Notes: generated by a model from the letters alone, not told the origin. Shown: positions 3,990 through 35,762, counted from the first letter of the stretch. The stretch is DNA of 64,000 nt from Verrucomicrobiia bacterium (GCA_035765675.1 DASTXC010000007.1:7696-71695); one strand, 5' to 3'. Translations and numbers: made by a program.

Positions 3990-4301
3990 TCAGACTCCTT
4001 TCTCCATGCGAAGTATGGACTGCACTGCTCGTTCGACTTCATTGCTGGTGAGCTTCCAGGTATCCGGCAAACCGGCAATGACCGTCCATTTGAAGCGCTG
4101 ATGTATATCGAGCGCCTGCGGATCGTCCTGTAGGTGACTGGAGAGAATTGCGAGCGCGAGCTGAGCTGGACCGCTGCCGCTGCATCCCCATTCGAAACCG
4201 TCGGGGCTGTGGCTGTGGAGGTCGAGCCTCGGATCGAGAAGTTCACCGTCGACGGTGACAATGGCACCGGCTTTGGTGCGACGTCCTTCATACACGCTCA
4301 C
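3990..4301 (-). CDS. small hypothetical protein
   Basis: 103 aa with a HSPDGFEWGCSGSGPAQLALAIL motif. It overlaps the primase stop by 4 nt. Confidence 0.5.
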   Translation of the reverse strand: MSVYEGRRTKAGAIVTVDGELLDPRLDLHSHSPDGFEWGCSGSGPAQLALAILSSHLQDDPQALDIHQRFKWTVIAGLPDTWKLTSNEVERAVQSILRMEKGV

Positions 4302-5329
4302 AGATATGCCTCCGTGATCGTTTGAATTTCTTCCGCCGTGAGTTGGTCGGGCTGGGTGCCTTCTCTTTCGAACGTGTGAACTTTTACGAAACAGAAGTTC
4401 GCCAACCGCGCGGCGATGTCAGCCCGACCAGTGATTCCCGCCTCATCTTCATCAAGCATGATGACGATTCGAGGGAACTTGTCTCTGTGGGCTTTCAACC
4501 GCTCTTCCTGGGCTGCCGACAGGGTGCTGCCCATGAGGGCGACAACCTTGCGACAGCCATATTGGAAGAGCCTCATGCAGTCGAAGAATCCTTCGACGAT
4601 GATGAGCGGCATTTCCGGCGGCTCCTGAAGTGCCTGATCCAGATGAAACAGTTCTAGGGACTTCTTGAATCCAGGCGGGAGTTTGTATTTTGCCTCGTCG
4701 TCGCCCGGTTCACCGATGAACCGCCCGGCATACGCCACAATGAAACCGGCCTGATCTCGGATGGGGATGGCAATTCTATCTGCCATTATCCCTTTGCCGC
4801 AGAAGCCGATCTCAAAATGGCTGATTGTTTCCGGGGAAAGGCCACGTTCCTCAAGATACGGATGTTCCGGATCGAGCTTCTCCAGTTTGAACTTCAGCGG
4901 CTTGTTGGGTGTGGTGTCTTCCGGTGGTGGTGTGGGTTTCGGTCTGGGTTTTGAATCAAGCTTCCGTTTCGGCGTTTCCACTTCCTCTTCGGTGTTTTCT
5001 GACTCCGCATCGCGTTCAAACGATTTCGGATCGAGATTGAACCATTCCACGGCTTTGAGTGCCGCAGCGTGAATGCTCACGTCTTCCATTTTGGCGATGA
5101 AATCCAAAACATTTCCGCCGTGTTTGCACTCGCTGAAACAGTTGAACACGTTTTTGCTGATGCTCACGCGGAACTGCGTCGGATTGCTTCCTTTGTGGAT
5201 CGGACAAGGACCAGAGAGGCTGTCGCCGCTGCGTTTGAACTTGTCGAGAAGACCGTATCGGTCGAGAACTTGTTCCATGGTGACGGCCGCTTTGATGGCC
5301 TTGAAGTCAACGAACATAGATTTGGGCAT
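4298..5329 (-). CDS. DNA primase (CHC2 zinc finger + TOPRIM)
   Basis: GPCPIHKGSNPTQFRVSISKNVFNCFSECKHGGNVLDF is a CHC2 finger. IIVEGFFDCMRL ... VALMGS ... MLDEDEAG is a Toprim domain. I chose the internal ATG at 5327-5329 because AGGAG lies 6 nt upstream. The longest ORF extends to 5455. Confidence 0.85.
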   Translation of the reverse strand: MPKSMFVDFKAIKAAVTMEQVLDRYGLLDKFKRSGDSLSGPCPIHKGSNPTQFRVSISKNVFNCFSECKHGGNVLDFIAKMEDVSIHAAALKAVEWFNLDPKSFERDAESENTEEEVETPKRKLDSKPRPKPTPPPEDTTPNKPLKFKLEKLDPEHPYLEERGLSPETISHFEIGFCGKGIMADRIAIPIRDQAGFIVAYAGRFIGEPGDDEAKYKLPPGFKKSLELFHLDQALQEPPEMPLIIVEGFFDCMRLFQYGCRKVVALMGSTLSAAQEERLKAHRDKFPRIVIMLDEDEAGITGRADIAARLANFCFVKVHTFEREGTQPDQLTAEEIQTITEAYL

Positions 5330-5482
5330 GATTGCTCCTGTAGTTGGAATTGTTAATGTGCTAACGCCGGCTCGAAGAAATGAGCCGACTCCTGAAAGCA
5401 ATCCTACTGAGAAAAAAGAAAAGTCGTAGGCATGGAATCCTGTCGCGGGCGGCAAGTTGTGAAAATCGAAAGCAAGCGACGT

Positions 5483-6385
5483 TCAACCCAGGATCGTCCC
5501 CGTCTGGCCCGTTCTTCCAGCCTGGCAAATGTGGGAAAGTATTTGTGCCGGCCGTTCGAGTATTTTTGTGTCCGTAAAAAGAAACAGGCCGTGGCCGGTT
5601 TTCAATCTGGAGCACGCCTCGATAAGCGATTTCACGCGCTCTGGACTGGTCGCCACGGTCAAAACTCGGAAACGATTGAAACCAAAATTCTTTTCGTGAA
5701 TTGCTTGCGCCCAAGTGGCTTCATACGCAAGCAACTTGCGATAAAAGGAAGATTGCGAAAGCGTTTTGCGAGTGACGGGCATGGTGCCTCGATCAGCTTC
5801 CAGGAAAAAATATGAGCGTTGAATATTTCCATCTGAGCCGGTGAACTCCAACGCGAACACGCGATCAGGTGCGACGCTGAACCTTTGTCCCTGCACATTC
5901 ATCTTCCACCGAAACGGTTGGTTGGCTTTCGCAAGGTCCTGTTCGGCCAAAAGACGGATTCCGTTCTGCCGACAAGCAAGCTCAATCGAAACCACGATGT
6001 CTGACACAAGCAAGGCGTGTTTCAGGAACACGCGCCGGTCTGAATTGTCATCTTCATCCCAAGGGACAAAGCGGAACATCGGACCTAACTCGTTCTTGAG
6101 CAGCGCGGCACCATGACGTCCAAGGCAATACACCATCACATTTGAGCCGCCATGATGGTAATAGTCTATTTGGGCGCGAGGCCGCGTCAGATATCCGTTG
6201 TGGTAAAGCAATTTCAACCTTCGCAATACCTGCTGCGTGCTGCCCGGAACGAGGGCGCAAATGTGTGACGAGCGCAAAAAGCGATGGCGATATACCAGCC
6301 GAAGTATCTGAACGTCACGCTCGGTCAATTGAAAAGCCGGGGCATCGGAGGAACGCTGGAAACGTGGAAGCCTGGATAAAGACAT
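5483..6385 (-). CDS. replication-relaxation family protein (wHTH), candidate relaxase-like/initiator protein
   Basis: The N-terminal LTERDVQILRLVYRHRFLRSSHICAL wHTH, the size, and the position between a primase and a coupling ATPase are typical of this family. The call is by recognition only. Confidence 0.6.
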   Translation of the reverse strand: MSLSRLPRFQRSSDAPAFQLTERDVQILRLVYRHRFLRSSHICALVPGSTQQVLRRLKLLYHNGYLTRPRAQIDYYHHGGSNVMVYCLGRHGAALLKNELGPMFRFVPWDEDDNSDRRVFLKHALLVSDIVVSIELACRQNGIRLLAEQDLAKANQPFRWKMNVQGQRFSVAPDRVFALEFTGSDGNIQRSYFFLEADRGTMPVTRKTLSQSSFYRKLLAYEATWAQAIHEKNFGFNRFRVLTVATSPERVKSLIEACSRLKTGHGLFLFTDTKILERPAQILSHICQAGRTGQTGTILG

Positions 6386-6388
6386 GAT

Positions 6389-7705
6389 TTAGTCGTTAGC
6401 TGCTAAACTTAACGGCCTCATCCAGCGGTTCAGTTTGTCTTCAATGACTGGTCGCCTCATGGCAAATCGTTGACGAGATCTCTTGATGAGCCTGTCGCTT
6501 CGCCCGACACGGTTTTCAAGCGGCGGCAGCGTCCGTGCGCGGAACGGCTCTTTGTTCGTGCCGTTATCAAGCAACTTCACGACAGCTTCATATCGGTTAA
6601 GGTCGGCAATGGCCGCCGCTGAAAATGTATGACCAAACTCTTTCTCTATGATTTCGGCATCCGCATATCCGACACGGAAGGAGATCAGCGTTCCGGCATT
6701 TCCGAACACCGCCTGACGGACTGGAAGCGAGAGCTGATCAACGTATTGGTGGGACAAAATCAAGCATGAACGATACTTGCGAGCCTCGGCGAGAATGGAA
6801 GCGAAAGCGTCAGTCGAGAAATTCTGAAACTCGTCGATGAACAGGTAGAAGTCTTTGCGTTCGTGTTCAGGGCGATTTGAACGGGCCATTGCCGCGAGTT
6901 GAAACTGTGTCGTGAGCAACGAACCAAGCAGGTTCGCTTTCTCGTGCCCGAGTTTTCCTTTGGAAAGATTCGCAATGAACAGCCGTTCGTTGTTCATGAT
7001 GTATGGGATCTTCACTCGGGCGCGGACTTGACCCAGAATGTTTCGCACTACCGGGTTCAACAGGAATTGCCCAAGCTTGTTTTGAATCGGCGCGATGGCC
7101 TCGCGGCGGAAGCGGTCGTCGTATCCTTCATATTCTTCGGCCCAAAAGGCTCGGATGAATGGGTCTTTGATTTGGTGCACAACTTTGGCGCGGAACACCG
7201 GGTCAACCAGCATTCGGTTCACGCCCAGGAGCGTGGCGTTTTTGCAGTCGAGGAGTGCCGCGACGGAATTGTAAAGGATGTATTCAAGGCGCGGGCCCCA
7301 CGAATCGCGCCAGATGCCTTTGAATGCGCTCACCACGCCTGAAGCCACCAGGTGCCGGTCGTCCGGTGCAACATTAGCGAGCACATTCATTCCAATCGGG
7401 TGCTCAAGATCACTGGGATTGAAATATGTAAGATCGTCCGCGCGTTTTGGCGGAATATGGTGCAACAATTCGTCCGCAAGGTCGCCGTGCGGATCAATGA
7501 CGCCCACGCCATGGCCCATTGCGATGTGTTGAACAATTAAATTCCGCAACAGGGTCGTCTTGCCAGTGCCGGTCTTACCGATGATATAGATATGTTGGCG
7601 CTGGTCCTCCTTGGACACGCCAAAACGCTGGGGATTGCCCCAGCCGTCGCGTTCACCAATTATGATGCAAGGTTCTGATTCCAAAACCAGTCGCCACTTC
7701 TGCAA
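6389..7705 (-). CDS. TraD/VirD4/FtsK-HerA-type DNA-transfer coupling ATPase (T4CP-like, no TM segment)
   Basis: Walker A is GKTGTGKTT and the Walker B-like motif is LFIDEFQNF. The context is a conjugative element. Confidence 0.75.
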   Translation of the reverse strand: MQKWRLVLESEPCIIIGERDGWGNPQRFGVSKEDQRQHIYIIGKTGTGKTTLLRNLIVQHIAMGHGVGVIDPHGDLADELLHHIPPKRADDLTYFNPSDLEHPIGMNVLANVAPDDRHLVASGVVSAFKGIWRDSWGPRLEYILYNSVAALLDCKNATLLGVNRMLVDPVFRAKVVHQIKDPFIRAFWAEEYEGYDDRFRREAIAPIQNKLGQFLLNPVVRNILGQVRARVKIPYIMNNERLFIANLSKGKLGHEKANLLGSLLTTQFQLAAMARSNRPEHERKDFYLFIDEFQNFSTDAFASILAEARKYRSCLILSHQYVDQLSLPVRQAVFGNAGTLISFRVGYADAEIIEKEFGHTFSAAAIADLNRYEAVVKLLDNGTNKEPFRARTLPPLENRVGRSDRLIKRSRQRFAMRRPVIEDKLNRWMRPLSLAAND

Positions 7706-8022
7706 CCCGAAAGTCCCGTGTCATCAGACCACCGCGGTTACCCGCGAAGCGGCGCCTGCAGGGTGTGTGGGGGCACGCTGGCGAGGTAATGGCGACTGGT
7801 TTTGAAATCCAACAAGTGGATTCAGATCAGAGAATATATCGAGGAGACAGATTGTTGCAGGCCCGGAACATTGTCGTGCACGGCAACATTAGACGGCAGA
7901 TTTGCCGCATTTTTATACGGTTGTATCGGTCGTGAATCCGTCGTTTTCTCCGCGCCTTGGCGTGAAGTCCCGCGGAGCGATTCAGTGTTTCGGCGCGAAG
8001 CGCCTCATCTTAAAACCAGTCC

Positions 8023-8165
8023 CCCCAACGTGTCGGCCCGTTTTGATAAAAACGGCTACCGGCCGACTTAACGCTTTTTGGTAAAGGACACCGGTTAGGG
8101 GGACTGCATCCCGATAGCCGCAGGAAAAAGCGTTAAGTCGGGCGGTAGCCGACGACACGTTGGGG
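8023..8165. other. long branched inverted repeat (candidate oriT / single-strand initiation site / structured RNA)
   Basis: The left arm is ccccaacgtgtcg..ggctaccggccgacttaacgcttttt (8023-8079). It pairs with aaaaagcgttaagtcgggcggtagccgacgacacgttgggg (8126-8165). The left arm carries a nested mini-hairpin, ccgtttt-gata-aaaacgg. Confidence 0.6.
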
Positions 8166-8387
8166 GAACTCGTGGTGCGGCGGTTAAGCCGTGGAATCGT
8201 GAAAGTGAGTGGCGTAAACCACTACATGTCATGTATATACACTCTAAAGTAAGGGCTTTTGAGGCTCCGTGTTCCGAACGAATTAAAGGAATTTAGCCTA
8301 TTACTCCAGTGATTTTGACAGTCAAAACAAAATATGCTTGAATTAAAGCCAGTTGCATTGTTGGCGGCAATTTTTCGGGAATCGCTC

Positions 8388-8909
8388 ATGAAAAAACAAT
8401 ACCCGCAAGAATCGTGGTGGATCGACGGTCTTAAGTTATCTGCTTCTGCAATTGATCGCACTGGTGTCTTTAGCTCTCGGTTTATACGGGAAGGCACTGT
8501 CGTAATACGATGGGGCGGAATCGTCTTTACAGGCTCTGAAATGCGTGAGGGAAAAGCATGCCAGCATACGTATGTAGGAATTGACGACGATCTATTTTTG
8601 GCAAATCCAGCAGCTCAGCCACCTGGCCTTGATGACTTTATGAATCATTCATGCGATGGGAACTTATGGATGGAAGATGACACAACACTGATAGCTCGAC
8701 GAGACATTATGGCGGACGAAGAATTAACCTCCGACTATGCACTGTGGCTCAACTTGCCCGAGTATCGAATGAAGACTCCATGCAATTGCCACTCACCTTT
8801 ATGTAGGCATACGATTACCGGTTTGGACTGGCGAATTCCCGAGGTTCAGAAAAGATATTTTGGTCACTTCTCTCCATTTATTAATAAACTCATTCTAAAA
8901 AACTCCTAA
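8388..8909 (+). CDS. SET-domain protein (lysine methyltransferase fold)
   Basis: FMNHSCDGNL ... ADEELTSDY are SET motifs, and a Cys-rich post-SET stretch CNCHSPLCRH follows. The start was chosen at MKKQYPQE. The longest ORF begins at 8334. Confidence 0.85.
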   Translation: MKKQYPQESWWIDGLKLSASAIDRTGVFSSRFIREGTVVIRWGGIVFTGSEMREGKACQHTYVGIDDDLFLANPAAQPPGLDDFMNHSCDGNLWMEDDTTLIARRDIMADEELTSDYALWLNLPEYRMKTPCNCHSPLCRHTITGLDWRIPEVQKRYFGHFSPFINKLILKNS

Positions 8910-8910
8910 T

Positions 8911-9618
8911 ATGCTCACTCTAATCACAGGCGGAAGTCGAGGTATCGGATACGCGATAGCTCAAGAAATGGCGAAAAAAGGAAGCGATTTGTTGCTGGTT
9001 TCACAGAATGCAAAAAAGTTGCAGACCGCATCGAACAAACTTAAAAAGCAATATCCGAAGTTAAAAATCAACTCCCATGTTTGCGATATGGGTTCGCAAG
9101 AAGAAATAAATATTCTCGCTGATGATTGTATCCGAACAAATCTCGTTCCAGATTTTTTGATACTGAACGCGGGTATCTTTCTTGAGGGAAGCTTAGTGAA
9201 CTCCAAGCCGCAGGACTACCGCAAAACCTTGGAGGTGAACCTGAACGCAATTTATTATTTAGTGCAGAGACTCGCTCCAAAAATGGCTTCCAAAAAAAAG
9301 CCGCGCATCGTTCTTATAGCATCTACAGCCGCATATGAAGCTTATCCTGTTGGGGCGTTATACGGCGTCGCGAAGTGGGCATTAAGGGGTTATGCTGTAA
9401 ACCTACGGAAGGAACTTATGAAGAACGGTATAGGAGTCACTCTAGTCGCTCCGGGTGGAACCCTGACGGACTTGTGGGCGGGTGAAGAGCTACCACCAAA
9501 TCGCCTATTAGAACCAAAAGATATCGGTACCATCATCGCTAACTTTGTAGATCTTAGTTCCCAGGCAGTTGTAGAAGAAGTAATTGTCCGACCAATGTTG
9601 GGCGATATGCACGAATAA
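8911..9618 (+). CDS. short-chain dehydrogenase/reductase (classical SDR)
   Basis: TGGSRGIGYAIA is the TGxxxGxG motif, LNAGI the NAG motif, and YGVAKWAL the YxxxK motif. It starts 2 nt after the SET stop. Confidence 0.9.
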   Translation: MLTLITGGSRGIGYAIAQEMAKKGSDLLLVSQNAKKLQTASNKLKKQYPKLKINSHVCDMGSQEEINILADDCIRTNLVPDFLILNAGIFLEGSLVNSKPQDYRKTLEVNLNAIYYLVQRLAPKMASKKKPRIVLIASTAAYEAYPVGALYGVAKWALRGYAVNLRKELMKNGIGVTLVAPGGTLTDLWAGEELPPNRLLEPKDIGTIIANFVDLSSQAVVEEVIVRPMLGDMHE

Positions 9619-9638
9619 AGCCCATCACCCTTAAAACC

Positions 9639-10475
9639 ATGGGGCTCGAAGTAATCACTGGCGGTATTGAAGTGGCCGGAAAGCTCTTTGAATCTTTCGG
9701 GAGTGTAATAGGGCGACGAATTAATATTAAAGAGCTAAAGAAATCAAATGATCGACATATCGACGATATATTAGATCTATATGAACGCATTTTTAAAGCA
9801 GAGCACAAGATTCCAGGATCAGATTTGATCGCTTGGCTTCAAACTCGAGACACGACAGAACCCGCAGAAGAACGAATTCAACAATGTTTACTTTTTGCCA
9901 AACGCAAATCCGCTGTCGTCGGAGTTCTCAAGGCGCTGTATTGTCCACAATCTCGGTATGTGTTGGTCTCCTATTTAGGGATTGATAAACAATCCGACAC
10001 CGTTAGTCGAAAAGTTGCCCGAAAGATGATGATTAGCTTTTTTGCTCGTTTCTTGAACCGGAAATGGAAGGATTATCGCGGGATAGTCTTTGAAATTGAG
10101 ACGGCACTTCCTGGCATGGTTAAGGCTGAAAAGGACGAATGCAGGGCCCGGCTCAGATTGTTTCGAGATATTGCAACGCAACAAAATAGCCGGGCATTGC
10201 ACATTAAGATGGATTACCACCAGCCGAAGATGGCGGATGAGGAGAATTACACCGGCACCGGACGTAAGATGACTTTAATGTTTATACCAAAAAAGCATAG
10301 CGGTGACTTTATTGCCAAAGCAATCGTGGAAAATCTGCTTAAATTTTTACTTTTCCGAGTTTACGGAACTACACAGACAATATCGGGAAGAAGGAAGGAA
10401 GCATACGGGAAGTATCTCAATGGTATTTACAAGTTAACAGTTAATCAACTCACCGAGCATGTAGATGTTGAATAG
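9639..10475 (+). CDS. hypothetical protein (orphan; possibly GNAT-like fold, unverified)
   Basis: 278-aa ORF with no competing ORF, AT-rich codon usage like its neighbours, and an 11-nt overlap with the downstream kinase-like gene. Confidence 0.55.
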   Translation: MGLEVITGGIEVAGKLFESFGSVIGRRINIKELKKSNDRHIDDILDLYERIFKAEHKIPGSDLIAWLQTRDTTEPAEERIQQCLLFAKRKSAVVGVLKALYCPQSRYVLVSYLGIDKQSDTVSRKVARKMMISFFARFLNRKWKDYRGIVFEIETALPGMVKAEKDECRARLRLFRDIATQQNSRALHIKMDYHQPKMADEENYTGTGRKMTLMFIPKKHSGDFIAKAIVENLLKFLLFRVYGTTQTISGRRKEAYGKYLNGIYKLTVNQLTEHVDVE

Positions 10476-11058
10476 GTTAGAACAAGAGTCTGCTTGCCCC
10501 TGTATTATTCTCATCGGAACTACTGGCGCGGGAAAGTCGCTGTCGTGTGAACTGGTTGAGCGATTTTATATGGCTGAAAGGGTAAGAAGATTTACCACCA
10601 GAGCACCGAGAAATGATGATGACGCGAAATTGGTAGTTCATGTGGAACACATTGCCCCTGAGAGGAATTCATTTGTGTATGAAGGTTGGGGTGACACCCG
10701 CTATTGTATACAATCGTCCGATATGATTGCGATTCGGGCCAAATTAAAAAGTCCATTGGTCGAATTGGGAGATCCAACGGACGCTATCAGATTTAGAATG
10801 CAATTTGCACCCGCTAAAATTGTTTGCCTCTGGCGAGATATGAATGTAGAAGGGCTCGAAAAGCTGTTTGGCACAAGGAACATTTCTGAAGAGCAAAAGA
10901 AACTTAGGTTGGAGTCACTTGAAGAGGATATTCTTAGGCTTCGAATTAGCTCTAACAATTATGATTTCGTTATTCAAAATAATTCATCTGCGGATGCTCT
11001 CTTCGAAAGCTGGCGGGAGATTCTAAAACAATTGAATGTGCCAGCAATCGAGAATTAG
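10465..11058 (+). CDS. guanylate-kinase-like P-loop kinase
   Basis: The P-loop is GTTGAGKS. RFTTRAPRNDDD matches the GK TTRxPR motif. The lid and C-terminal pattern is LRLESLEEDI...NYDFVIQNN. Confidence 0.65.
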   Translation: MLNRLEQESACPCIILIGTTGAGKSLSCELVERFYMAERVRRFTTRAPRNDDDAKLVVHVEHIAPERNSFVYEGWGDTRYCIQSSDMIAIRAKLKSPLVELGDPTDAIRFRMQFAPAKIVCLWRDMNVEGLEKLFGTRNISEEQKKLRLESLEEDILRLRISSNNYDFVIQNNSSADALFESWREILKQLNVPAIEN

Positions 11059-11073
11059 CGAGGGGCGTATTAA

Positions 11074-11972
11074 GAGCGTGTCTGAAAAATCATGAATGAA
11101 GCGGAATCAGGCCAGGCGGCGGAGTTGGATTCGGATCATGGCGATGTGGATCCAGGCTTCGGCGCTGGACTCGGTGGTTTCGTAATCGCGCACCAGACGG
11201 CGATGGCGCATCAACCAGCCGAAGGTGCGCTCCACGACCCAGCGACGCGGCAATACTTTGAATCCTTTGACGTCATCGGAGCGTTTGACCACCTCGACGT
11301 TCAGCCTGGGCCGAATGGTTTTAACCCACTGGGCGAAGGCTGGGCCGGTGTAGCCACCATCCACCCACAGAATTCGCAGCCAGGTGAACCAGCTCAGGGA
11401 TTGTTTCAAAAGCAGTTGCGCTCCGTCGCGTTCAGTGGTGCTGGCCGGAGTGACCATCACGCCCAGAATCAATCCCAGAGTGTCCACCAGCAAATGGCGT
11501 TTGCGGCCGTTGATCTTTTTGCCGGCGTCGTAACCCACAACTCCGCCGTGGCCGTCGGACTTGACGCTTTGGCTGTCGAAGAATCGCCGCCGTGGGTCGG
11601 CTGCGCTTGCCGTGCGTTCGGCGAACCAGGACGCGCAGCGCGTCATGGATCGCAGTCCAGTGGTCATTGGCGATCCATTGGCGGAAGACGTGGTAAACGG
11701 TTTTCCAGTTGGGAAAGTTGGCGGGCAGATAGCGCCAGGGGCAGCCGCTTTTGACCAGATAGAGAATGGCGTCCAGTATCCGTCGCCGGTCTTTGGGTGG
11801 ACGTCCGCGTTTGGCTGGTTTGGGAAGCATCGGTTTGAGGTAAGTCCATTGGGCGTCCGTAAGATCAGTGTCGTATTTGGCGATTTTCATCGCCTGACTG
11901 GCGCTACCGCGAATCAAAGCCAACCACATCGCCAGCAAAATCAAGCTCTTTCTCTATTTTTCAGACAGGCTC
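11074..11972 (-). mobile_element. IS5-family (IS427-group-like) insertion sequence
   Basis: The terminal IRs are gagcgtgtctgaaaaat (11074-11090) and atttttcagacaggctc (11956-11972), matching at 16/17. They are flanked by TAA on both sides (11071-11073, 11973-11975), which I read as a putative TSD. The element is 899 bp. Confidence 0.85.
11107..11890 (-). CDS. IS5-family DDE transposase in two overlapping frames (orfA 11432-11890, orfB 11107-11667)
   Basis: orfA reads MKIAKYDTDLTDAQWTYLKPMLP..GRPPKDRRRILDAILYLVKSGCPWRYLP. orfB reads FFDSQSVKSDGHGG..GKKINGRKRHLLVDTLG..WVDGGYTG..RRWVVERTFGWL. orfB is in the +1 frame relative to orfA. Confidence 0.8.
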
Positions 11973-12030
11973 TAAGACTTTGCCGATAAGCATGAATGTG
12001 GCAGATATTACTCACATTGGGTAATTTGGA

Positions 12031-12087: not shown

Positions 12088-12366
12088 ATGGACGGCATGA
12101 CAGACAAAAAATATTTTTGGTCGTATCAGGAGGTAGCCGATTTTCTTAAGGAGAACGATTTTGAATTTATGAGCGGTTCAAATGGCTCGACCGGAGCATG
12201 GATAAGATTGAATGAGAATGGCGAGCCGGACACTGTGTTTGAATTAAAATTCACCCCCACCAATTACACAAAAAAGCAGATCAGTCGAATAATCCGCATG
12301 TCCGAGATTCCTGAGAGCAAGTGGATCGAATGGTTTGAAGAACGACTGAATGAAGCCGCACCATAA
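12088..12366 (+). CDS. small hypothetical protein (weak HicA/YcfA-like flavour)
   Basis: 92-aa ORF. The ADFLKENDFEFMSGSNGS pattern is reminiscent of HicA-type folds, with low certainty. Confidence 0.4.
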   Translation: MDGMTDKKYFWSYQEVADFLKENDFEFMSGSNGSTGAWIRLNENGEPDTVFELKFTPTNYTKKQISRIIRMSEIPESKWIEWFEERLNEAAP

Positions 12367-12756: not shown

Positions 12757-14577
12757 ATGAAATTACGGTCTATTTCTATTAGGAACTTCCGATGCTTGGA
12801 CGAAGCGTCCATTTCCATTCGGGATCTAACAAGCCTTATCGGTCCTAACAATTGCGGTAAATCCTCTGTGCTCCGCGCCATTGAGATTTTTTTAAATCAG
12901 CAATCTCCTACGCTTCAAGAATGGCGTGTGGGTCACAGTGATAAAGCTATCGTGATCGAGGGAGAATTTGATAGCCTTCAAGAGTGGGAAAGATCGACAT
13001 CCGGCGTGGCAGGCCTTGTTTATAATGACAAAATAAAATTAAGGGTAAGTTTTTCAATTAATTCCGAAACGGAAAAAGTAGAAAAGGTTTATGAGGCCTT
13101 CAAACAGGAAGAGACCATTGCTGGATGGTCTGACAAATGGTCTGACCTTGCCGATAATATTAAGGCGATCGCCGAAGGTGCTGGCGTCAATGGCACTGGC
13201 TGGCGCACCGCCGGCAAGCGAGAACAAGTGAAAAGCGTCATCCGTCAGACCAAAGCGGACCTTGTCACCTACGGTGAGGCAAAATGGTCGACCGAAAATA
13301 TCAGTATTGACGCAGCGCTCCAGCAGGCTATCCCCCAGGCGCAGCTGATTCCAGCGGTCCGCGACGCGAGTGATGATAGTAAACCCGGGTCAAAAACTTC
13401 ATTCGGTCTGATTCTGAGCAAAATCCTTCTACCGGCGATTCAAGCATCAAGCGAATATACAGAATTGATGAGCGCTGTTCAAAAGCTTCAAACAAAACTC
13501 GCGGCAGAGGGCGCAGATCAAATTGAAAAAATCCGAGAAATCACAAAGTTGTTATCAGGCCGTCTTTCGTCGGTTATCGACGCAAAGGTGCTCCTTACAA
13601 TGACCACACCGGATGCGGAAAAGTTTATTGGATCCAATACCGGTCTTGAGCTCGATGACGGCACTCGGACATCAATAAATTTACAAGGTAATGGTCTTCA
13701 ACGTGCTCTCGTATTTGCATTAATGGAGACACTGGCCGCGCAAAATGCACAGATATTAGATGAGCAAGGAAAGCCTGCCCGTTCCCGGAGCACCCTGGTC
13801 CTTTTCGAAGAGCCGGAGCTTTTCCTGCACCCACACATTATGAGAAGTCTGAAACAGGCATTACATGTCATTTCTCAAAAATCGGATTGGCAAGTAATTC
13901 TAACGACACATTCACCGTTCATGATCGACATTGCTGATGACCCCTTGTCATTAGTGATTTTTAGGAGAGAAAATTCCAAAACTCCTCCAAAAGCAATTCA
14001 GTTGAAAGTTGATCCTTTCGGACAGGATGAGGATTCAAAGCGGGACAGAGAAGCGTTACGCGCCGCGCTCAATTTTCATCCAACCGTATGCGAAGCATTC
14101 TTTGCTAAACGGACGGTGCTCGTGGAAGGCGATTCCGAAATGGCGGTGCTTGTCAGGCAGCCAGAACTGTATGCAAAGGCTGAAGTAGATTTAGAAAAGC
14201 GACAACATTGCACTATGGTTTCGTGTGGAGGAAAGTGGACCATTCCGCCAATGGCAAATTTGCTCAAACAATTTGGTATTCCATTTCGCATAATTCATGA
14301 TCAAGATAAAAAAGGACGGTCGAATGCGGAACTGGCGGAAGCGGTGGCTATTGATCCATACCGAGCTAACGCGCGCATTGCTGCTTTTGCGTCACCAGAA
14401 AATATTCTTATTGTCGATGATACCCTAGAAGATTTGTTTTGGCCTCCTGACAAACGGCCAAAATCATCCGGTGATAAACCACATCGCATTTGGAAACGAG
14501 TGAAGGAGTTAGTAGAGGGTCAAGAACCGCTCAATGCGGAAATCAAAGCATTTGTTCAGTTTGCGTTCAACTGGTAA
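12757..14577 (+). CDS. OLD-family ATP-dependent nuclease (ABC-type ATPase + TOPRIM)
   Basis: The N-terminus is MKLRSISIRNFRCLDE. Walker A is GPNNCGKSS, the signature-like motif LQGNGLQRAL, Walker B LVLFEEPELFLHP and the H-loop LTTHSP. The C-terminal Toprim has VLVEGDSEMAVL and HDQDKKG. Confidence 0.85.
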   Translation: MKLRSISIRNFRCLDEASISIRDLTSLIGPNNCGKSSVLRAIEIFLNQQSPTLQEWRVGHSDKAIVIEGEFDSLQEWERSTSGVAGLVYNDKIKLRVSFSINSETEKVEKVYEAFKQEETIAGWSDKWSDLADNIKAIAEGAGVNGTGWRTAGKREQVKSVIRQTKADLVTYGEAKWSTENISIDAALQQAIPQAQLIPAVRDASDDSKPGSKTSFGLILSKILLPAIQASSEYTELMSAVQKLQTKLAAEGADQIEKIREITKLLSGRLSSVIDAKVLLTMTTPDAEKFIGSNTGLELDDGTRTSINLQGNGLQRALVFALMETLAAQNAQILDEQGKPARSRSTLVLFEEPELFLHPHIMRSLKQALHVISQKSDWQVILTTHSPFMIDIADDPLSLVIFRRENSKTPPKAIQLKVDPFGQDEDSKRDREALRAALNFHPTVCEAFFAKRTVLVEGDSEMAVLVRQPELYAKAEVDLEKRQHCTMVSCGGKWTIPPMANLLKQFGIPFRIIHDQDKKGRSNAELAEAVAIDPYRANARIAAFASPENILIVDDTLEDLFWPPDKRPKSSGDKPHRIWKRVKELVEGQEPLNAEIKAFVQFAFNW

Positions 14578-15086: not shown

Positions 15087-16883
15087 CTAATTATTCGCGT
15101 TCGGCTCGAAAGCCGCCAATTCTTTGAAGTGGTGGTATACTTTGCTTATCAGAAGTTTAATTTTATCAGCTCTGGTGCGAACATCCTTCAAGTCCCGCAG
15201 CAGAGTTAAATACTGGTATTCCAAAGGACTTTTCCGCCTTTGTATGACCACGGCGTTTTCTGGTGCGACCGGCGCGATTTCTCCACGCTCCGTCGCAAGA
15301 AAATCTCCGAGCCAAACAAACGGTTTCTTGGCTTCCATCAATAGCCTTTTGTCATGCAAGGTCTGGTGCGATCCCATGGTCGTTAGAATCTGCTTTTTGG
15401 TTCGAAAATCACCTTTGGCAAACTTCTCACAAGCCGATTCGGCAAACTCAAATACTTCCTGAGCCTGGCGTAATGCCTGTTCTGCACTGGCACGATCATT
15501 TCTTGGAAGGTTTTCCAAAGCTGCTTTTTCACCAAGCAATTCACGACGCTGCATTGCGTATTCCTCGTCAGAAAGCAAGCTGCCGTCCATATTCGCGGGC
15601 GACATTTTGAATCGGATCAGGTTTTCGAGTCGTTTCAGGCAATTTGCGTAGGCCTTTTCGTAAGATTGCTTGATGTGGTAATCGCTCGTTGCATCTTCAC
15701 GGTGGATTTCTTTCAGAAAGCTGAACGACCAGTCTTTGAACGTGCCTGAGATTTCGATGCGCCTCAATTGTGCCACGATCTGTTCTTCAAGTTTTGCAGC
15801 TTCGATGCCGGGTTGTGTGCATCCGCCTTTTCTCCGGGCACAATGGTAGTAAGTGTAATCGCGGAAAACCGGCTTCGTCATTTTCGCAATCGGCGTGCCG
15901 CATCGCGGGCACTTGTCATGTTTGTGATAGACAAACTTCAACCGGCAATTTGTGCAACGCAAATTGTGCTTTTCCTCTGCTGTCACCATTCCGCTACAAG
16001 CACCGCAACGAATGATGCCGGTGTATGGGAACGCAGTGTGTTTGCTGGCCCGAGGATTACCTTTCCGCCATAAAATCGCTTGCACCCGATCAAACTCTGC
16101 TTTGGTAATCATTGGCTCGTGCTTGCCCTCATACCAGTTTCCGCTGCGACGAGGGTATTCAAACCAGCCATAATAGAACGGATTATGGAAAATATGATAC
16201 AGGGCGCTCACGCTCAGAGGGCTGTCACCCTGCCTTTTCGTTCGGCGCGTTCGAAATCCCCATTGCTCATTCGCAATTTTCGCAATCTGCGGCGGCGTGT
16301 AGGTGCCAGTGAGCATCATCTGCCACATTTGTTTGATAAGGGGGAAACGGTCGGCGTCTTTGTAAAGGTCGCGCTCGCCGCGCAATTTTGTTTTGTCATT
16401 AAGATATCCCATGGGGGCGACGCCGGGATACCAGCCCATGCTCGCTTTCTTTCGCAATCCGCGCTCCACATCTATGCCCTTATTATCGTTTTCGAGCTTC
16501 GCCTGGCCGCAAAAGAGAATGATAAGAAATTTGTCAGCCGGAATGTTCTTGAATGTTTGGCTCGGAGTGCGAATTTCCATCAGCTTGTTTTGGTCCATAA
16601 GTTCCACCAGAGCCGCGGCATCGCCAGCGTTTCGTGAAAGGCGGTTCAAGTGCCAGCACAGAATTGCGTTGCCCTCACCTCGTTTAATTCGGCGCAGCAT
16701 GTCGTTGAAATTCTTACGAGTGCCCGACGTTTTTGCGGATGCTTCTTCTTCAATCTGACCCGCAATCCGGAGGTTATCCCGCGATACAATCGGGTGTAGT
16801 TCGTCCCGCTGTGATTCGTTCGAGATGATTTGTTTCTCGTCATCCTCCTCTGATTTGCGACAATATATGAAGTGGGTAAGCAT
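15087..16883 (-). CDS. large serine recombinase
   Basis: The N-terminal resolvase domain reads IYCRKSEEDDEKQIISNESQ. A recombinase domain follows, then a zinc ribbon (CGACSG..CTNC..CPRCG) and a C-terminal coiled coil. Confidence 0.9.
   Translation of the reverse strand: MLTHFIYCRKSEEDDEKQIISNESQRDELHPIVSRDNLRIAGQIEEEASAKTSGTRKNFNDMLRRIKRGEGNAILCWHLNRLSRNAGDAAALVELMDQNKLMEIRTPSQTFKNIPADKFLIILFCGQAKLENDNKGIDVERGLRKKASMGWYPGVAPMGYLNDKTKLRGERDLYKDADRFPLIKQMWQMMLTGTYTPPQIAKIANEQWGFRTRRTKRQGDSPLSVSALYHIFHNPFYYGWFEYPRRSGNWYEGKHEPMITKAEFDRVQAILWRKGNPRASKHTAFPYTGIIRCGACSGMVTAEEKHNLRCTNCRLKFVYHKHDKCPRCGTPIAKMTKPVFRDYTYYHCARRKGGCTQPGIEAAKLEEQIVAQLRRIEISGTFKDWSFSFLKEIHREDATSDYHIKQSYEKAYANCLKRLENLIRFKMSPANMDGSLLSDEEYAMQRRELLGEKAALENLPRNDRASAEQALRQAQEVFEFAESACEKFAKGDFRTKKQILTTMGSHQTLHDKRLLMEAKKPFVWLGDFLATERGEIAPVAPENAVVIQRRKSPLEYQYLTLLRDLKDVRTRADKIKLLISKVYHHFKELAAFEPNANN
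15172..15202. repeat. 31-nt perfect direct repeat, copy B (inside the recombinase 3' end)
   Basis: Identical to 12495-12525. It encodes LLRDLKDVRT in both copies. Confidence 0.85.
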
Positions 16884-22753: not shown

Positions 22754-24374
22754 CTAGCAGCCTGTCGGACTTAGGCTGAAGATTTTTGAAAAACTTTTGA
22801 ATGCGAAGGCGGGCGCGGGTATCAACAAATTATGCCCGCACGCTTCGTCAACCTCGACCGCCAGACGCCGATGTTCCTGCCCTGCGATCTGCGCGAATGG
22901 ATTCCCGACGACCATATCGTTCACTTCATTCTAGATGCCGTCGAGCAACTGCCCCTGGCTCGCTTCCATATCAATCATCGCGGCACCGGCAGCGAACAAT
23001 ACCCTCCGGCCATGATGCTGGCCCTGCTCATTTACTGCTACGCGACCGGGCGTTTCGGTTCGCGCACCATCGAGGCGGCCACTTACAGCGACGTGGCGGT
23101 GCGTTACATCTGCGCCAACACGCATCCCGATCACGATTCGATTTGCACCTTCCGCGCCAACAATGAGGCGGCCTTCCGCGCCGCCTTTGTCAGCGTGCTG
23201 CAACTGGCCCAACAATTGAAGTTGAGCCAATTTGGAACCGTCAGCGTGGACGGCACCAAGATCCAGGCCAACGCCAGCAAACACGCGGCGGTGAGCTATC
23301 AGCGCGCCGGCGAACTGATCGCGCAACTGGAACTGGAAGTGAACCAACTGCTGGAGCGGGCCAAAGCGGCAGAGACACAGGAAAAACAGGAAGGGCTGGA
23401 CATTCCCGCCGAACTGAAACGCCGGGAGCAGCGCCAGGCCGCGCTGCAAAAAGCGCGGGCTGTCATCGAAGAGCGGGCCAAAGAAATGGCGGCGGCGCAG
23501 CAAGCGGAGTACGAAGCCAAGGCGGCGGCGCGCCAACAACAACGCGACGAGGGAAAGAAGCCGCGCGGCAAAGACCCCCAGCCGCCCGGCGCGGAACCGG
23601 ACCCCAACGCGCAATATAACTTCACCGATCCGGAGAGCCGGATCATGAAAGCGGGCAGCGGCAACCATTTCGAGCAGGCGTACAATGCGCAAGCGGCGGT
23701 GGACGAGGCGATGTTGATCGTGGGCCAGCGCGTCAGCGACGCGCCCAACGACAAAGAGCAACTGGCGCCCAGCGTGGCGGCGATCAGCCCGGTGGTGGCG
23801 CCGGAAGTCAAAGCCGTGTTGGTGGACAGCGGATTTTACAGCGAAGCGGCGGTGGCGGCGGTGGAGCAAAAAGCCGACGGGACACCCAGCGGCATCACGG
23901 TTTACGCGGCGGTGGAAAAACATTCCCATCACAAAACGGTGGAGGACTTGTTGACGGCGGTCGAGCCTGCCGCGCCGGGAGAGCAAGCCAGCGCCAAAGA
24001 GAAGATGGCGCACCGCTTAAACACGGCGTCAGGAAGAGCGCTCTACAAGTTGCGCAAGCAGACAGTGGAGCCGGTGTTTGGGATCATCAAGGAGGTGATG
24101 GGCTTTCGGAGATTTTTATTGAGGGGGCGGGCCAAAGTGAGTTTGGAATGGACGCTGGTGTGCGTGAGTTACAACCTCAAGCGGCTCTTCGCGCTCAGAA
24201 ATCCGGCTCTGGCGGGATAAAAGCGGTCGGGGCGGGGCAAAAATCGGGGTGAACGATTTGCCAAAGCCTATCCAAGCCATCGGGAGAAAACGAAAAGTCA
24301 GTTTTCGTCAGCGGTCAGGGAACATATAGAGACGCGCTCCCCAAAACCTTCTCTCAAGTCCGACAGGCTGCTAG
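22754..24374 (+). mobile_element. IS1182-family insertion sequence
   Basis: The 19-bp perfect terminal IRs are ctagcagcctgtcggactt (22754-22772) and aagtccgacaggctgctag (24356-24374). There is a single transposase ORF. Confidence 0.85.
22832..24220 (+). CDS. IS1182-family DDE transposase
   Basis: The N-terminus is FLPCDLREWIPDDHIVHFILDAVEQL. A central Lys/Glu/Ala coiled-coil insert follows. The C-terminus is KLRKQTVEPVFGIIKEVMGFRRFLLRG. Confidence 0.9.
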   Translation: MPARFVNLDRQTPMFLPCDLREWIPDDHIVHFILDAVEQLPLARFHINHRGTGSEQYPPAMMLALLIYCYATGRFGSRTIEAATYSDVAVRYICANTHPDHDSICTFRANNEAAFRAAFVSVLQLAQQLKLSQFGTVSVDGTKIQANASKHAAVSYQRAGELIAQLELEVNQLLERAKAAETQEKQEGLDIPAELKRREQRQAALQKARAVIEERAKEMAAAQQAEYEAKAAARQQQRDEGKKPRGKDPQPPGAEPDPNAQYNFTDPESRIMKAGSGNHFEQAYNAQAAVDEAMLIVGQRVSDAPNDKEQLAPSVAAISPVVAPEVKAVLVDSGFYSEAAVAAVEQKADGTPSGITVYAAVEKHSHHKTVEDLLTAVEPAAPGEQASAKEKMAHRLNTASGRALYKLRKQTVEPVFGIIKEVMGFRRFLLRGRAKVSLEWTLVCVSYNLKRLFALRNPALAG

Positions 24375-27289: not shown

Positions 27290-30200
27290 ATGAAAAAACA
27301 AAGCCTGCTGTTCCGAGTCCTCACCTGGTTCTTCATCGCATACATGGCTGCACCGCTCAATGTGGTCGTCGGCCAAGTCCTTTTGGAACAGCCGATCATG
27401 ATGCCGAACAACACGATTCGCCTGGTGGTGGACGGGCCGACTACCGATGTCCGCTATGACGTTTACGGCACGAACACGTTGAGCAGCAGCATCTCCTCCT
27501 GGCCGCTTTTGATTACCGGCGAACCCAATCAGGTCATTTTTGATTTCGCCAATCCCTTCACCAACGCCGGGTTTTTCATCGTCACTTCCAATTACGTCGC
27601 GACGACCAACCCGCCGCCCAAAGTCGCGACACCGGTTTTCGATCCGCCGAGCGCCAGCGGCAACGCTTCCGTTCAGGTGACAGTCATCTGCGACACTCCC
27701 GGAGCCGTGATCTATTACACCATCGACGGCAGCACGCCGACGACATCCAGCACCTATATTCCCTCAGGCGGAACCGTGGCGATTCAGTGTGCAACGACCT
27801 TGAAAGCGCGGGCGTTCCGCTCTGGATTCGATGACAGCGACGTAGCAAGTGGCGTCTTTGCGATCAACTGCCAGCCAGAAATATTCGCCGGGTTGCAACA
27901 GATCATTTCCGGGAATTCAACTACGCTGGAAGGCGTGGTTTTTGACGACGGCTTGAGCCAACCGCTTTCAAACTATTGGGAAAAGATCAGCGGACCGGGC
28001 ACGGTCGCATTTACTGACGTTCATTCGACGAATACAACGGCGACGTTTTCACAAGACGGCATCTATGTGCTTCAGTTGAATTCATTCGACGGCTTCTGGA
28101 CGATTTCCGATCAGGTGACGATTGCCCGTAATCCGACCATCAGTGTCGCAATCACCGCTCCCGTTGCGAGCAGCACGTATTCGGTGCCGACAAATATCGC
28201 GCTTTCAGCTTCCGCGAGTTGCACGAGCGGCAGCATCACGCAGGTTCAGTTCTTCGCGGATTCACAATTGATCGGCACGGATGACGCGGAACCTTTCACT
28301 TACGAATGGCGCAATGTCCCTGCCGGAAATCATGCCTTGTATGCCGTGGCAATTTCCACCGATCCCGATAATTACAGTCTCCTATCCGATCCGGTGAACG
28401 TCACGATTAATTATCCGACCGACATCGGCCGATTCACGCTCGCTGCGAATGATCTGACCATTCCGGTAGCCGGTATGCCGATCACGGTCAATCGGAGTTT
28501 CGATCCTCGATACGGCAGCGGCTGGAGCCTGGGCGAAAACATGCGCTTTGATTTTGAATCGGTTCACATCGACAAATCCGCTGCACTCGGCTCCGGCTAT
28601 TTGGCGCAATACAACCTGGGACAGGATTGCATTCAGCCCAATCACGATACTTTGGTTACGGTGTCGCTGAGTCCAACCGAACAATATTATTTTCGTCCGC
28701 GCATTGTGTTTCAAGCCGGTGGTGGCAGTCCATGCGTGGGTGACAGTTCGGTAACGTATCTGGCGCCCATTAAATTCGTGTTTGATGCGGTCGGGCCGCT
28801 TGGTGGTGAACTCGCCTCGTTCAATGCGCCGAGTGATGTGGGCATGATGAATGATGATGTTTTCTTTGGTGATTGGAGCGGGTCGATTCAAGCGGGAACG
28901 GAAGACTTCTTTGAAGTGGAACCTTATGAACCGGACTGGTCGCTGTTTACATTCATCGCTCCGGACGGGACGCAGTATAAATTTGATTCCAGCGGCAAAC
29001 TGTATCAACGCATCGACCGGAACAACAATTCCCTCACTTTCAATTACGGCGACATCACGCACAGCAGCGGCAAGCAGGTGACGTTCACGCGAGATGGTTT
29101 CGGCCGCATCACCGAAGTCTATGATCCCATCGCAATTGCCACGAGCGGCAATCCCGCCGTCAAATATGATTACGACGACAGCGGCAATCTGACGAACGTC
29201 GCACGCCTGGTGGATCGCGCGGGCACGTATGAAAACACGGGCTATCGTTACGATGATTCCTCCTTTCCGCACTCGATCACGCGCGTCATTGATGCGCGAG
29301 GCGTCACGACTGTGAGCAACGTGTTTGATGAATTCGGACGATTGCAGCGGCAGTATGATGCCTCCGGCCGTTATACGAGCTTCACCTACGAAGACAACGG
29401 TCGCCGTCAGATCGTGACAGATCGCAACAGCAAAACCACTCAGCAGGAATTCACCGAGTCCGGCCAATTGAAGAGCGTGAAGGACGCAGAAAACGCGGTC
29501 ACAACCTATCAATATGATTCCAATGGCAGGCCGATTGCCCAGATTGACCCGCTCGGCTCCACCAACAGCTATGCCTACAACGAACGGGATGAACTGGTCG
29601 GCATGACCAATGAACTGAATCTCACGTCCAGTTCCACCTACAATGAATTCGGCCAACCGCTCATTCTTATCGATGCCGCCGGTTACGGAACAACCAACGG
29701 ATATGATTCCGTGGGCAATCTCATCGCGACGACCAATGCGCTCGGAATTGTGAGCCGTTACGGTTACGACACTCAAGGCAACCGCACTGCGGAAACCAAT
29801 GCGTTTGGTCGAGCAGAACAAACGGTCACGACGTATCAATACAACGAGTTCGGCTACCTCACGAATGTGATCGACGCCCTGGGCAACCAGACCGCCTATA
29901 CCTACGACGAAAATGGCAATCAACTGACGACAAAGCGGCAACGGACACTTGCCACCGGTTCATTGCAGTCGTTGTGGACAACGAATGTCTATGACGCGAT
30001 GAATCGCTCGATTGCCATCATTGATCCGGACGGCTTCACGAATCGAACGGTGTTCAATGCCATCGGACAAGTGGCCTATACCACGAACAAAGCAGGCGTG
30101 GTGATGCGCTTTGATTTTGACGAACGCGGGCTTTTGACAAACTCGGTTTTCGCGCTCGGCACCGCGCAGCAAGCCAGCGAGCAATTCCGCTATGATGCCG

Positions 30201-34677: not shown

Positions 34678-35762
34678 TACAGAATTACCTCCGGATGTGA
34701 AATGTCAAAGGTCAGAAAACGTCGGTCACGGCGCCGGTTATCGGCAGAGATGGTTATCACACACGAACCGGGAAGAACCATTTCATCGGAAGCTCGAATA
34801 TTATTGATATCCACAATGCCTGAGATATTGCGGAGACGAAAATCAAAACCCTCATACACAATGGTGAAGCTTGCGAAACCTGGCGTTTTAACGCCGATGC
34901 CTTTACCAATCTCTGCAATTTGGTAAACTTTATCACCGTAAGTCAGCCTTCCTTCATGCTTTCCGAACAACAGATGAGCAGCTATTTCATCTCGCATGAA
35001 TGCCATCTCAGGACGTTTAGCAGGGATAACATTCAATGTCGAGTTAAGAGCGTCCGAAAGCCGTTTCGGGAGTCCAATAGTGTGAGTTGAGAAGGATGGT
35101 GGCGGAACAGTATCGAAGGGAGGAACTTCCAAAAAACCTTTTGGAAATCTCGGATCAAGCAACTCCCACGCAGTGACTCCGAATGCATACGTATCGACAG
35201 CGGCTGTGACTGTCGCAGGGGCGGCGGTATATAACTCGGGCGCACGGTAAACATCGGTGCCTCTCCCGGTTGTAGTCACAGGAGGCGGTTTGTGGTCACA
35301 CGCCAATCCAAAATCGAAAATTTTCAAAATTTTCTCAGAATCGAATTTCATGTTCACTGGTTTTATATCCCGGTGGATTTTCCCATGCGAATGGATGTCG
35401 GCGATTCCCGAAGCGATCTGGAATATAACTTTAAGGTAATCTTGAACCCCTTTCACTCCGCCCGAAGCAAAGTCCGGAAGCTCGTCTCCGGAAAGATACT
35501 CTTGCACTACTGCTGCAACTGAGGCTCCTTCATCCTTGAAGAAATCGAAAATTCGCACCACGTGCTTGGATTCGATTGTAGAGAGAGCAGCGACTTCATT
35601 TTGGAGCGTCTGACAGTCAGTTACCTCCTTTACAATTTTGATCGCCACTTCTCGGCCCAACCATTTATCCCGACAAACCATTACCTTGCCCTGACCTCCG
35701 CTGAAGGTCTTTGTCGCCGGACCATACCGATTGGGAATGGTCAACCCGCCTTTTGCACTCAT
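34677..35762 (-). CDS. Hanks-type Ser/Thr kinase with C-terminal beta-rich (FHA-like?) domain
   Basis: The kinase motifs are GGQGKVMV, VAIKIV, HRDIKPVNM, DFGLA and YRAPE. The roughly 110-aa tail (..FTIVYEGFDFRLRNISGIVDINNIRASDEMVLPGSCVITIS..) is loosely FHA-patterned. Confidence 0.8.
   Translation of the reverse strand: MSAKGGLTIPNRYGPATKTFSGGQGKVMVCRDKWLGREVAIKIVKEVTDCQTLQNEVAALSTIESKHVVRIFDFFKDEGASVAAVVQEYLSGDELPDFASGGVKGVQDYLKVIFQIASGIADIHSHGKIHRDIKPVNMKFDSEKILKIFDFGLACDHKPPPVTTTGRGTDVYRAPELYTAAPATVTAAVDTYAFGVTAWELLDPRFPKGFLEVPPFDTVPPPSFSTHTIGLPKRLSDALNSTLNVIPAKRPEMAFMRDEIAAHLLFGKHEGRLTYGDKVYQIAEIGKGIGVKTPGFASFTIVYEGFDFRLRNISGIVDINNIRASDEMVLPGSCVITISADNRRRDRRFLTFDISHPEVIL

Follow-up and report, generated by a model that had tools for sequence, protein, structure and literature searches.

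A four-gene cassette of atypical base composition

The subject of this study is a cassette of four plus-strand genes occupying positions 8388-11058 of a stretch of 64,000 nucleotides from a Verrucomicrobiia bacterium (GCA_035765675.1 DASTXC010000007.1:7696-71695), the whole of which is called the window in what follows. The genes, with the lengths of their products in amino acids (aa), are:

8388-8909, plus strand: SET-domain methyltransferase gene, 173 aa (PF00856)
8911-9618, plus strand: short-chain dehydrogenase/reductase (SDR) gene, 235 aa (PF00106)
9639-10475, plus strand: GNAT-like gene, 278 aa, predicted GNAT fold, no Pfam model
10465-11058, plus strand: P-loop kinase gene, 197 aa, distant relative of the guanylate kinase (GK)/PhnN family

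The initial annotation of this DNA, made from the sequence alone, described these genes as tightly packed, and the coordinates of the open reading frames (ORFs) confirm an operon-like arrangement with gaps of 1 nt between the SET and SDR genes and 20 nt between the SDR and GNAT-like genes, followed by an 11-nt overlap of the GNAT-like and kinase genes. It also held the block to be the most AT-rich part of the window. The GC content is indeed 0.436 in the cassette against 0.529 in the remaining window, the lowest value among 1227 sliding windows of 2671 nt.

An ATG at 8334, upstream of the SET gene, provides an alternative start that would give 191 aa; the alignment of homologues favours 8388, and likewise favours 10465 as the start of the kinase. 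In the public annotation (P0276, 162 aa) the kinase gene begins further downstream and leaves out, from the region 10465-10572, a Walker A motif that homologues conserve, so that the 197-aa model with the 11-nt overlap is the better one.

The SET, SDR and GNAT-like genes form a conserved triad

Absence of co-occurrence elsewhere had been set beforehand as a refutation of the cassette, and the opposite was observed. The SET, SDR and GNAT-like genes stand together at every related locus recovered whose contig suffices to show the neighbours, which amounts to nine lineages (Verrucomicrobiae, Sediminibacterium and Xanthomonadaceae among them) from three or more bacterial phyla. When loci were found via the GNAT-like protein alone, a SET gene, an SDR gene or both adjoined the GNAT-like gene at 8/8 distinct places (P0002, P0003, P0004, L020 from a Sediminibacterium metagenome-assembled genome (MAG), L021, L022, L023 and L024), four of them on contigs too short for all three genes. 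Loci found via the SET protein provided the triad in L016, L018 and L027, together with a decayed copy in L015.

Gene order varies among the loci. L016 carries the full four-gene cassette in the same order and with the same 11-nt overlap (50% identity for the GNAT-like protein and 49% for the kinase), whereas the genes are rearranged to GNAT-like/SET/SDR in L018 and L023, with their linkage kept. A Xanthomonadaceae MAG (L027) presents the order CPT-like kinase/SET/SDR/GNAT-like. In L018 (4653-7270; the same in L019 and L022) the order is short SET/GNAT-like/SET/SDR; its GNAT-like gene was assigned by hhalign with a probability of 99.85%, and the protein has a clear N-terminal hydrophobic helix. 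The extra upstream SET gene of L018 encodes 130 aa (PF00856, 2e-16). As a separate observation, the decayed cassette of L015 (2330-3975) lies beside a tyrosine integrase and retains intact SET and SDR genes; of its GNAT-like gene there is only a remnant (E 1.5e-6), and a fragment of an AAA_15 ATPase gene overlaps it on the opposite strand.

Pairwise identities of the three proteins co-vary over the nine lineages (Spearman 0.68-0.78). The SDR is the most conserved (52-80%), followed by the SET protein (41-78%) and by the GNAT-like protein (24-68%), the fastest-evolving member. Short junctions are also found at other cassette loci while the flanking genes vary by lineage, and the GC content is below that of the flanks in 12/13 loci, the difference being 2-16 points overall and no less than 4 points in 11. 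The cassette is one operon-like, co-inherited, horizontally mobile unit, and its conserved part is the triad SET + SDR + GNAT-like and not the four genes that the initial annotation had taken as a unit.

A juxtaposition of unrelated cargo genes by chance, with no joint function, might be read from the annotation of the window, which names each gene independently. Since the same gene set recurs on unrelated contigs in nine lineages at 24-80% identity, co-diverging and with linkage kept despite rearrangement, this explanation is effectively refuted and retains only a very small probability.

The GNAT-like protein: fold, motifs and family

The 278-aa protein (9639-10475) has no match in Pfam, NCBIfam or PADLOC, and was originally considered a protein of no recognisable family. 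This no longer applies. The AlphaFold2 (AF2) model, of moderate quality (predicted local distance difference test, pLDDT, 69; predicted template modelling score, pTM, 0.71), shows the topology b1-a1-a2-b2-b3-b4-a3-b5-a4-b6-b7 followed by a C-terminal helical extension. A Foldseek search with this model returned 284 PDB matches at E<=1e-3, the top 50 being all GNATs (SpeG, PA1377, GCN5 and AAC(6') included), and 54 matches at E<=1e-3 in the viral library BFVD, essentially all of them GNATs. PF00583 was matched weakly by 14/60 stand-alone relatives (best 6e-4) and by 3/27 fusion proteins (best 1.2e-5); no other family recurs among the relatives, and the window protein itself has no PF00583 match. 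The extent of the family depends on the method, with a word-indexed search returning three other clusters only and a profile search of a 50%-identity library returning 371 representatives at E<=1e-3 and 232 at E<=1e-10.

The alignment of 13 closer relatives (A6) has invariant Y112, R124, A127, E152, A170, R173, Y193, P196, Y242 and Y256, with G114 and R171 nearly so; over 60 sequences (A5) only P196 and Y242 are invariant, and Y112 and Y193 nearly invariant. The conserved blocks fall at the positions of GNAT motifs A and B, namely YxGxDK...RxxA at b4-a3, E152 on b5, ARxRLF on a4 and YxQP on b6. The Q/R-x-x-G-x-G/A position at b4-a3 corresponds to R124-K-V-A127, in which R124 and A127 are invariant in the 13 closer relatives and the glycines are missing. 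Thus the structural model points to a divergent GNAT-fold protein from a family without a Pfam model. As the conserved residues fall at motif A/B positions, it is probably an active, atypical acyltransferase.

Fusions to immune-type domains and a possible signalling role

Among the best 150 GNAT-like representatives, 27 are fusions, which lie among proteins P0138-P0269. The partners are TIR (seven), DUF4062 (four), PNP_UDP_1 (two) and an MmyB-type helix-turn-helix (HTH; two), with Metallophos, a lipase-like hydrolase, Pkinase and Trans_reg_C once each. The TIR domain of one fusion matches Thoeris ThsB at 1e-48. In P0236 a kinase domain is followed by two copies of the GNAT-like domain. Recent reports describe DUF4062 as an immune NADase domain (bioRxiv 10.64898/2026.09.04.749371; 10.64898/2026.05.01.722283); the DUF4062 preprint searched mentions no GNAT-like partner. 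The fusion pattern of the family is typical of immune effectors.

This pattern has to be weighed as a sign of a signalling-type immune system, in which the SET protein and the SDR, with a kinase or phosphatase, would make or edit a signal and the GNAT-like protein would be the ligand sensor that switches the attached effector. The swapping of N-terminal effectors is known from CBASS, Pycsar and Thoeris, and the fusions to MmyB-type HTH and Trans_reg_C are of a kind that ligand sensors often show. Moreover, the SET protein binds S-adenosylmethionine (SAM) and the SDR binds NAD(P), both SAM and NAD(P) are known sources of immune messengers, and the GNAT-like protein evolves faster than its two partners. 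However, no cassette examined, that of the window included, contains a known signal-generating enzyme (CD-NTase, cyclase or TIR), the residues conserved at the usual GNAT motif A/B positions suggest catalysis, and the window protein has no clear effector part. We consider such a system unlikely.

The same holds for the proposal that an immune system not yet described, based on small-molecule chemistry, has the triad at its core. In it the SET protein and the SDR (with kinase or phosphatase) would produce or alter a messenger or antiviral substance, and the GNAT-like domain would act as receptor or executor. A role as receptor or executor would explain the fusions to membrane helices, TIR, DUF4062, PNP, phosphoesterases, lipases and kinases; the proposal nevertheless seems improbable to us.

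The SDR and the SET methyltransferase

The SDR scores 133 bits against PF00106 (adh_short; cut-off 26.6) and contains TGGSRGIG at 6-13, LNAG at 85-88, Ser139 and Y151-x3-K155, the motifs of a classical SDR. Among PDB entries 3rkr matches best (5.7e-31), and FabG, sepiapterin reductase and tropinone reductases come next. An Arg within the glycine motif, together with the lack of an acidic residue after beta-2, suggests a preference for NADP(H). The enzyme is FabG-like and probably NADP(H)-dependent, and as such would work as a reductase.

The SET protein scores 44.6 bits against PF00856 (gathering cut-off 22.4) and contains RWGG at 41-44, NHSC at 86-89, ELTSDY at 112-117 and the post-SET motif CNCHSPLC at 132-139. 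Five aligned homologues all share NHSC, EL-T-x-DY and the post-SET cysteines, and GHFSPFIN in the C-terminal region is invariant as well. A neighbour-joining tree of 119 SET homologues places all cassette-linked SETs in one clade of 20 tips, outside of which lie four SETs from unrelated contexts (L025, L026, L028 from an Asgard archaeon and L029 from Patescibacteria); more distant relatives, at 45-51% identity, stand alone. In one of the contexts outside the clade (L026, a Chloroflexi MAG, 6001-7581) the SET gene lies directly upstream of an extended-SDR/epimerase gene, and because of this adjacency there may be a looser pairing of SET with NAD(P)-Rossmann proteins beyond the triad.

The initial annotation noted that bacterial SET-domain proteins are uncommon and that proteins are their usual substrates. 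The canonical lysine-methyltransferase motifs are compatible with a protein substrate here, and the closest PDB sequence matches are MLL-type SET domains (1.4e-7), ahead of BurB (7.8e-4). The latter is a SET-domain methionine S-methyltransferase from Burkholderia (PDB 9l4t) that methylates a free metabolite and works in the pathways of dimethylsulfoniopropionate (DMSP) and malleicyprol (PMC12542666). Since BurB is a solved small-molecule precedent, a protein substrate should not be assumed for the SET protein of the cassette.

These similarities bear on a further explanation, according to which the cassette encodes a protein-modifying effector set: in a host, phage or plasmid protein (a nucleoid or translation factor, for example) lysines would be methylated by the SET protein and acetylated by the GNAT-like protein, with phosphorylation by the kinase in addition, so that the recipient cell is reprogrammed for the mobile element. 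The structural neighbours of the GNAT-like protein include GCN5 and protein acetyltransferases, and the cassette adjoins transfer genes; together with the lysine-methyltransferase motifs and the similarity to MLL-type SETs, this speaks for such a set. On the other hand, an SDR, for which no role on proteins is obvious, is the best conserved of the partners. The kinases are of small-molecule families (GK/PhnN-like and CPT), their place being taken elsewhere by a histidine phosphatase or a NAS-like enzyme, and neither a secretion signal nor a conserved target-like gene is found. A protein-modifying set is in our opinion distinctly unlikely.

The fourth gene occupies an accessory slot

The P-loop protein of the window contains Walker A GTTGAGKS at 18-25, TTRAPR at 44-49, in which the TTRxPR motif is retained as originally noted, and GWGDTRY at 74-80. 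Its designation as a GK-fold kinase is borne out only marginally, by the presence of these motifs and by an hhalign comparison with E. coli Gmk (probability 56%, E 1.1e-4, 150 colinear columns, the Gmk query being approximate); it is not borne out by the guanylate kinase model TIGR03263, against which the protein scores 15.9 bits with a cut-off of 160.45. Searches of Pfam and NCBIfam gave weak AAA_22 and guanylate-kinase matches only, and no PF00625 at E<=1. TIGR03263 is matched by 3/4 members of the window-kinase family (best 6.7e-4) and PhnN by one (6.2e-4). The AF2 model, built from two input sequences, is unusable (pLDDT 39). Homologues occupy this position in L002 (44% identity) and in L016, and P0275 is 87% identical to the kinase of the window.

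Over the related loci the fourth position is occupied as follows:

Window (and P0275), L002 and L016: GK/PhnN-like P-loop kinase
L020 and L024: CPT-like kinase (PF07931; 2e-46 for L020), then His_Phos_1 phosphatase
L027: CPT-like kinase (2.5e-39), upstream of SET
L008: unrelated, weakly NAS-like gene, cut by the contig end
P0004 lineage: none

Counted by lineage, the GK/PhnN-like kinase is present in three, the CPT-like kinase in two and the NAS-like gene in one, while one lineage has no fourth gene. A fourth gene as universal member of the cassette is therefore ruled out, the slot holding two unrelated kinase families, another gene or nothing; the two kinase types share the P-loop only (hhalign probability 3.5%). 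Comparison of the loci indicates that the kinase is an accessory, replaceable member. The recruitment of two unrelated kinases, a phosphatase and a NAS-like enzyme to one slot argues for a pathway that would handle a phosphorylatable small molecule.

Genomic context and searches for known systems

The initial annotation placed the cassette as cargo of a mobile element between a transfer backbone and a region with an insertion sequence (IS) and an OLD nuclease, and the flanking genes confirm this position:

4298-5455, minus strand: primase (left flank)
5483-6385, minus strand: Replic_Relax protein, relaxase (left flank)
6389-7705, minus strand: TrwB-like coupling protein (left flank)
11074-11972: IS5-family element, 899 bp, with 27-nt inverted repeats and a two-ORF transposase (DUF4096 + DDE_Tnp_1)
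12088-12366: 92-aa ORF of no family, nearest neighbour of the cassette once the IS is removed
12757-14577: Old-family nuclease, 606 aa, AAA_15 + OLD-like TOPRIM (PADLOC Old 7.8e-84)
15087-16883: serine recombinase, downstream of the Old nuclease

An N6-methylase and RadC are also encoded on the minus strand of the left flank. The IS5-family element begins 15 nt past the kinase stop and is a clean insertion, as a TAA target duplication is found on both sides (11071-11073 and 11973-11975). With a GC content of 0.577 it breaks an AT-rich cargo block that spans approximately 8.2 to 14.6 kb; without it, the cassette and the Old nuclease form one unbroken AT-rich block. The element probably ends at the serine recombinase. 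Among the window ORFs scanned there was no type IV secretion gene, and for this reason the element would seem to be mobilisable rather than fully conjugative.

The 680-nt gap between the coupling-protein and SET genes contains a GC-rich, near-perfect long hairpin of about 150 nt (8016-8170). Folded as RNA it has a dG of -103 kcal/mol (z = -8.6 against shuffles); it is single-copy in the window, has no Rfam match and is not present at related loci. It could be an inverted repeat of the type found at origins of transfer (oriT), or else serve the mobile element as a single-strand promoter or initiation signal. Elsewhere in the window there are an RHS-repeat fragment (77-1126), an 1839-aa RHS protein (27290-32809), two tandem Ser/Thr kinase genes (33571-35762) and a DDE transposase (22832-24220), the last in a GC-rich stretch (GC 0.634, AT skew 0.32).

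At the loci of the triad the neighbours are:

Window: relaxase and type IV coupling protein backbone, IS, Old nuclease
L002-L004: nSTAND and NACHT NTPases, SymE toxin, same transfer backbone
L020: PDC-M54A-like STAND protein, AbiEii
L015: tyrosine integrase
L016: serine recombinase
L027: IS66

A known defence system is ruled out by PADLOC-DB v2.0.0, in which neither the SET, SDR and GNAT-like proteins nor their L020 versions have a match. Literature searches returned no description that combines SET, SDR and GNAT-like components. The earlier statement that the cassette corresponds to no nameable pathway or defence system is thereby upheld.

The context has also to be considered in the light of ordinary accessory metabolism, in which the triad would make or tailor a host metabolite and would be found on mobile DNA only as a dispensable trait. 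The product could be an N-acylated, N-methylated derivative of an amino-lipid or amino acid, the reductase providing a hydroxyacyl group, a membrane-anchored GNAT-like protein N-acylating and the SET protein methylating the amine; a compatible solute, or the detoxification of a xenobiotic or an aminophosphonate, are other examples. In the phn operon the GK-family kinase PhnN stands beside the GNAT PhnO, which is a lead only. Every component belongs to a standard class of small-molecule enzymes, with an SDR that is FabG-like, and the N-terminal hydrophobic helix present in 77/106 stand-alone GNAT-like representatives fits a membrane or lipid substrate. Defence genes are missing from the contexts of L018 and of the L010/L011 lineage, which look ordinary. 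Nevertheless, repeated fusions to TIR, DUF4062, PNP and phosphoesterase domains are unexpected for a biosynthetic acyltransferase family, the spread over phyla is patchy with a consistently atypical GC content, integrases, IS elements and defence genes often adjoin, and no transporter, regulator or precursor-supply gene is conserved with the triad. We consider accessory metabolism fairly unlikely.

Proposed function

We tentatively propose, with a confidence that falls a little short of even, that the cassette is a mobile small-molecule-modifying module with a role in genetic conflict. The three core enzymes are a SAM-dependent SET methyltransferase, a FabG-like reductase of the NADP(H) type and a divergent, acyltransferase-like protein of GNAT fold, which may act in sequence on one compound of low molecular weight bearing amine and hydroxyl or phosphate groups. 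The SDR would reduce a carbonyl, the GNAT-like protein would acylate nitrogen and the SET protein would methylate, the methylation of a metabolite by a small bacterial SET having a precedent in BurB. The kinase or phosphatase would control phosphate by phosphorylation or dephosphorylation, and the kinase of the window, translationally coupled through the 11-nt overlap, extends the core. Mobile elements and defence islands would carry the module on account of the importance of its product or activity in conflicts, genetic or between microbes, for example in defence, counter-defence or the handling of toxins. Within this proposal we infer the small-molecule nature of the substrate, the order of the reactions and the role in conflict.

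Several observations weigh against it. The subgroup of the window GNAT-like protein has an amphipathic N-terminus only and not the hydrophobic one usual in the family, and the immune-type fusions sit in distant members, at approximately 20-28% identity. The SET motifs are fully canonical for lysine methyltransferases and the top similarity is to histone-type SETs, so that a protein substrate is equally compatible. The ordinary contexts of L018 and L010/L011, mentioned above, count in the same direction. PADLOC gives no system for any of the four cassette proteins, the kinase matching only mad8 at E 0.0044. Finally, no copy was found in 72,556 plasmids (tblastn with the GNAT-like, SET and SDR proteins), 50,697 phage records (tblastn with the GNAT-like protein) or IMG/VR (pattern scans), and P0176 matched plasmids via its PNP domain only; the description as mobile cargo thus rests on metagenomic contigs.

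No described pathway or defence system corresponds to the gene combination, to the dedicated SET clade or to the GNAT-like family, and we rate them as new at the level of combination and family. If the triad works as a unit, a new GNAT-like family without a Pfam model is defined (approximately 370 representative clusters at 50% identity), and bacterial SET enzymes, whose roles are poorly understood, gain two constant partners. Linked as it is to mobile elements, to defence islands and to domains of immune effectors, this cassette of 2.1-3.3 kb is a candidate for a new small-molecule conflict system. Even if its function is ordinary metabolism, a metabolite pathway that has spread horizontally across phyla would be revealed.

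Comparison with known systems

The GNAT-like family as a whole resembles the effectors of signalling defence systems (Thoeris ThsA/ThsB, CBASS Cap and Pycsar) in combining a constant domain with interchangeable transmembrane (TM), TIR, PNP, phosphoesterase and lipase modules; the window protein itself has no clear effector part. In contrast to those effectors, the constant domain is GNAT-like and not SAVED, SLOG or cNMP-binding, and has no cyclase or CD-NTase partner.

With the GNAT superfamily (SpeG, PA1377, GCN5, AAC(6')) the protein shares the fold detected by structure search, the weak PF00583 similarity of its relatives and conserved residues at the motif A/B positions. It differs from the superfamily by the lack of a Pfam match in the window protein, the degenerate Q/RxxGxG/A motif (RKVA), an extra C-terminal helical extension of 50 residues with conserved tyrosines, and because most members of the family bear an N-terminal membrane helix or effector domains.

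The window kinase is comparable to the small-molecule P-loop kinases of the GK/PhnN family, being colinear with Gmk including the TTRxPR phosphate-binding motif, whereas its score lies far under the family cut-offs and, after TTRxPR, a DDD stands in place of the guanine-binding motif. In the Sediminibacterium and Xanthomonadaceae versions this position of the cassette is taken by the CPT (PF07931) family, which is unrelated to the window kinase beyond the P-loop.

BurB is, like the SET protein of the window, a small (approximately 180 aa) stand-alone bacterial SET, and the two match weakly over residues 78-146. The match is partial, however, the window protein is nearer to MLL-type enzymes, and it has a post-SET Cys cluster and a conserved GHFSPFIN tail of its own. 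We know of no report of BurB with SDR or GNAT-like partners. The bacterial and archaeal SET protein-lysine methyltransferases, whose name NCBI gives to the window gene, share with it PF00856 and all catalytic motifs. Known enzymes of that group act alone on chromatin-like or host proteins, whereas in the clade of the window SET protein the linkage to an SDR and a GNAT-like gene is constant.

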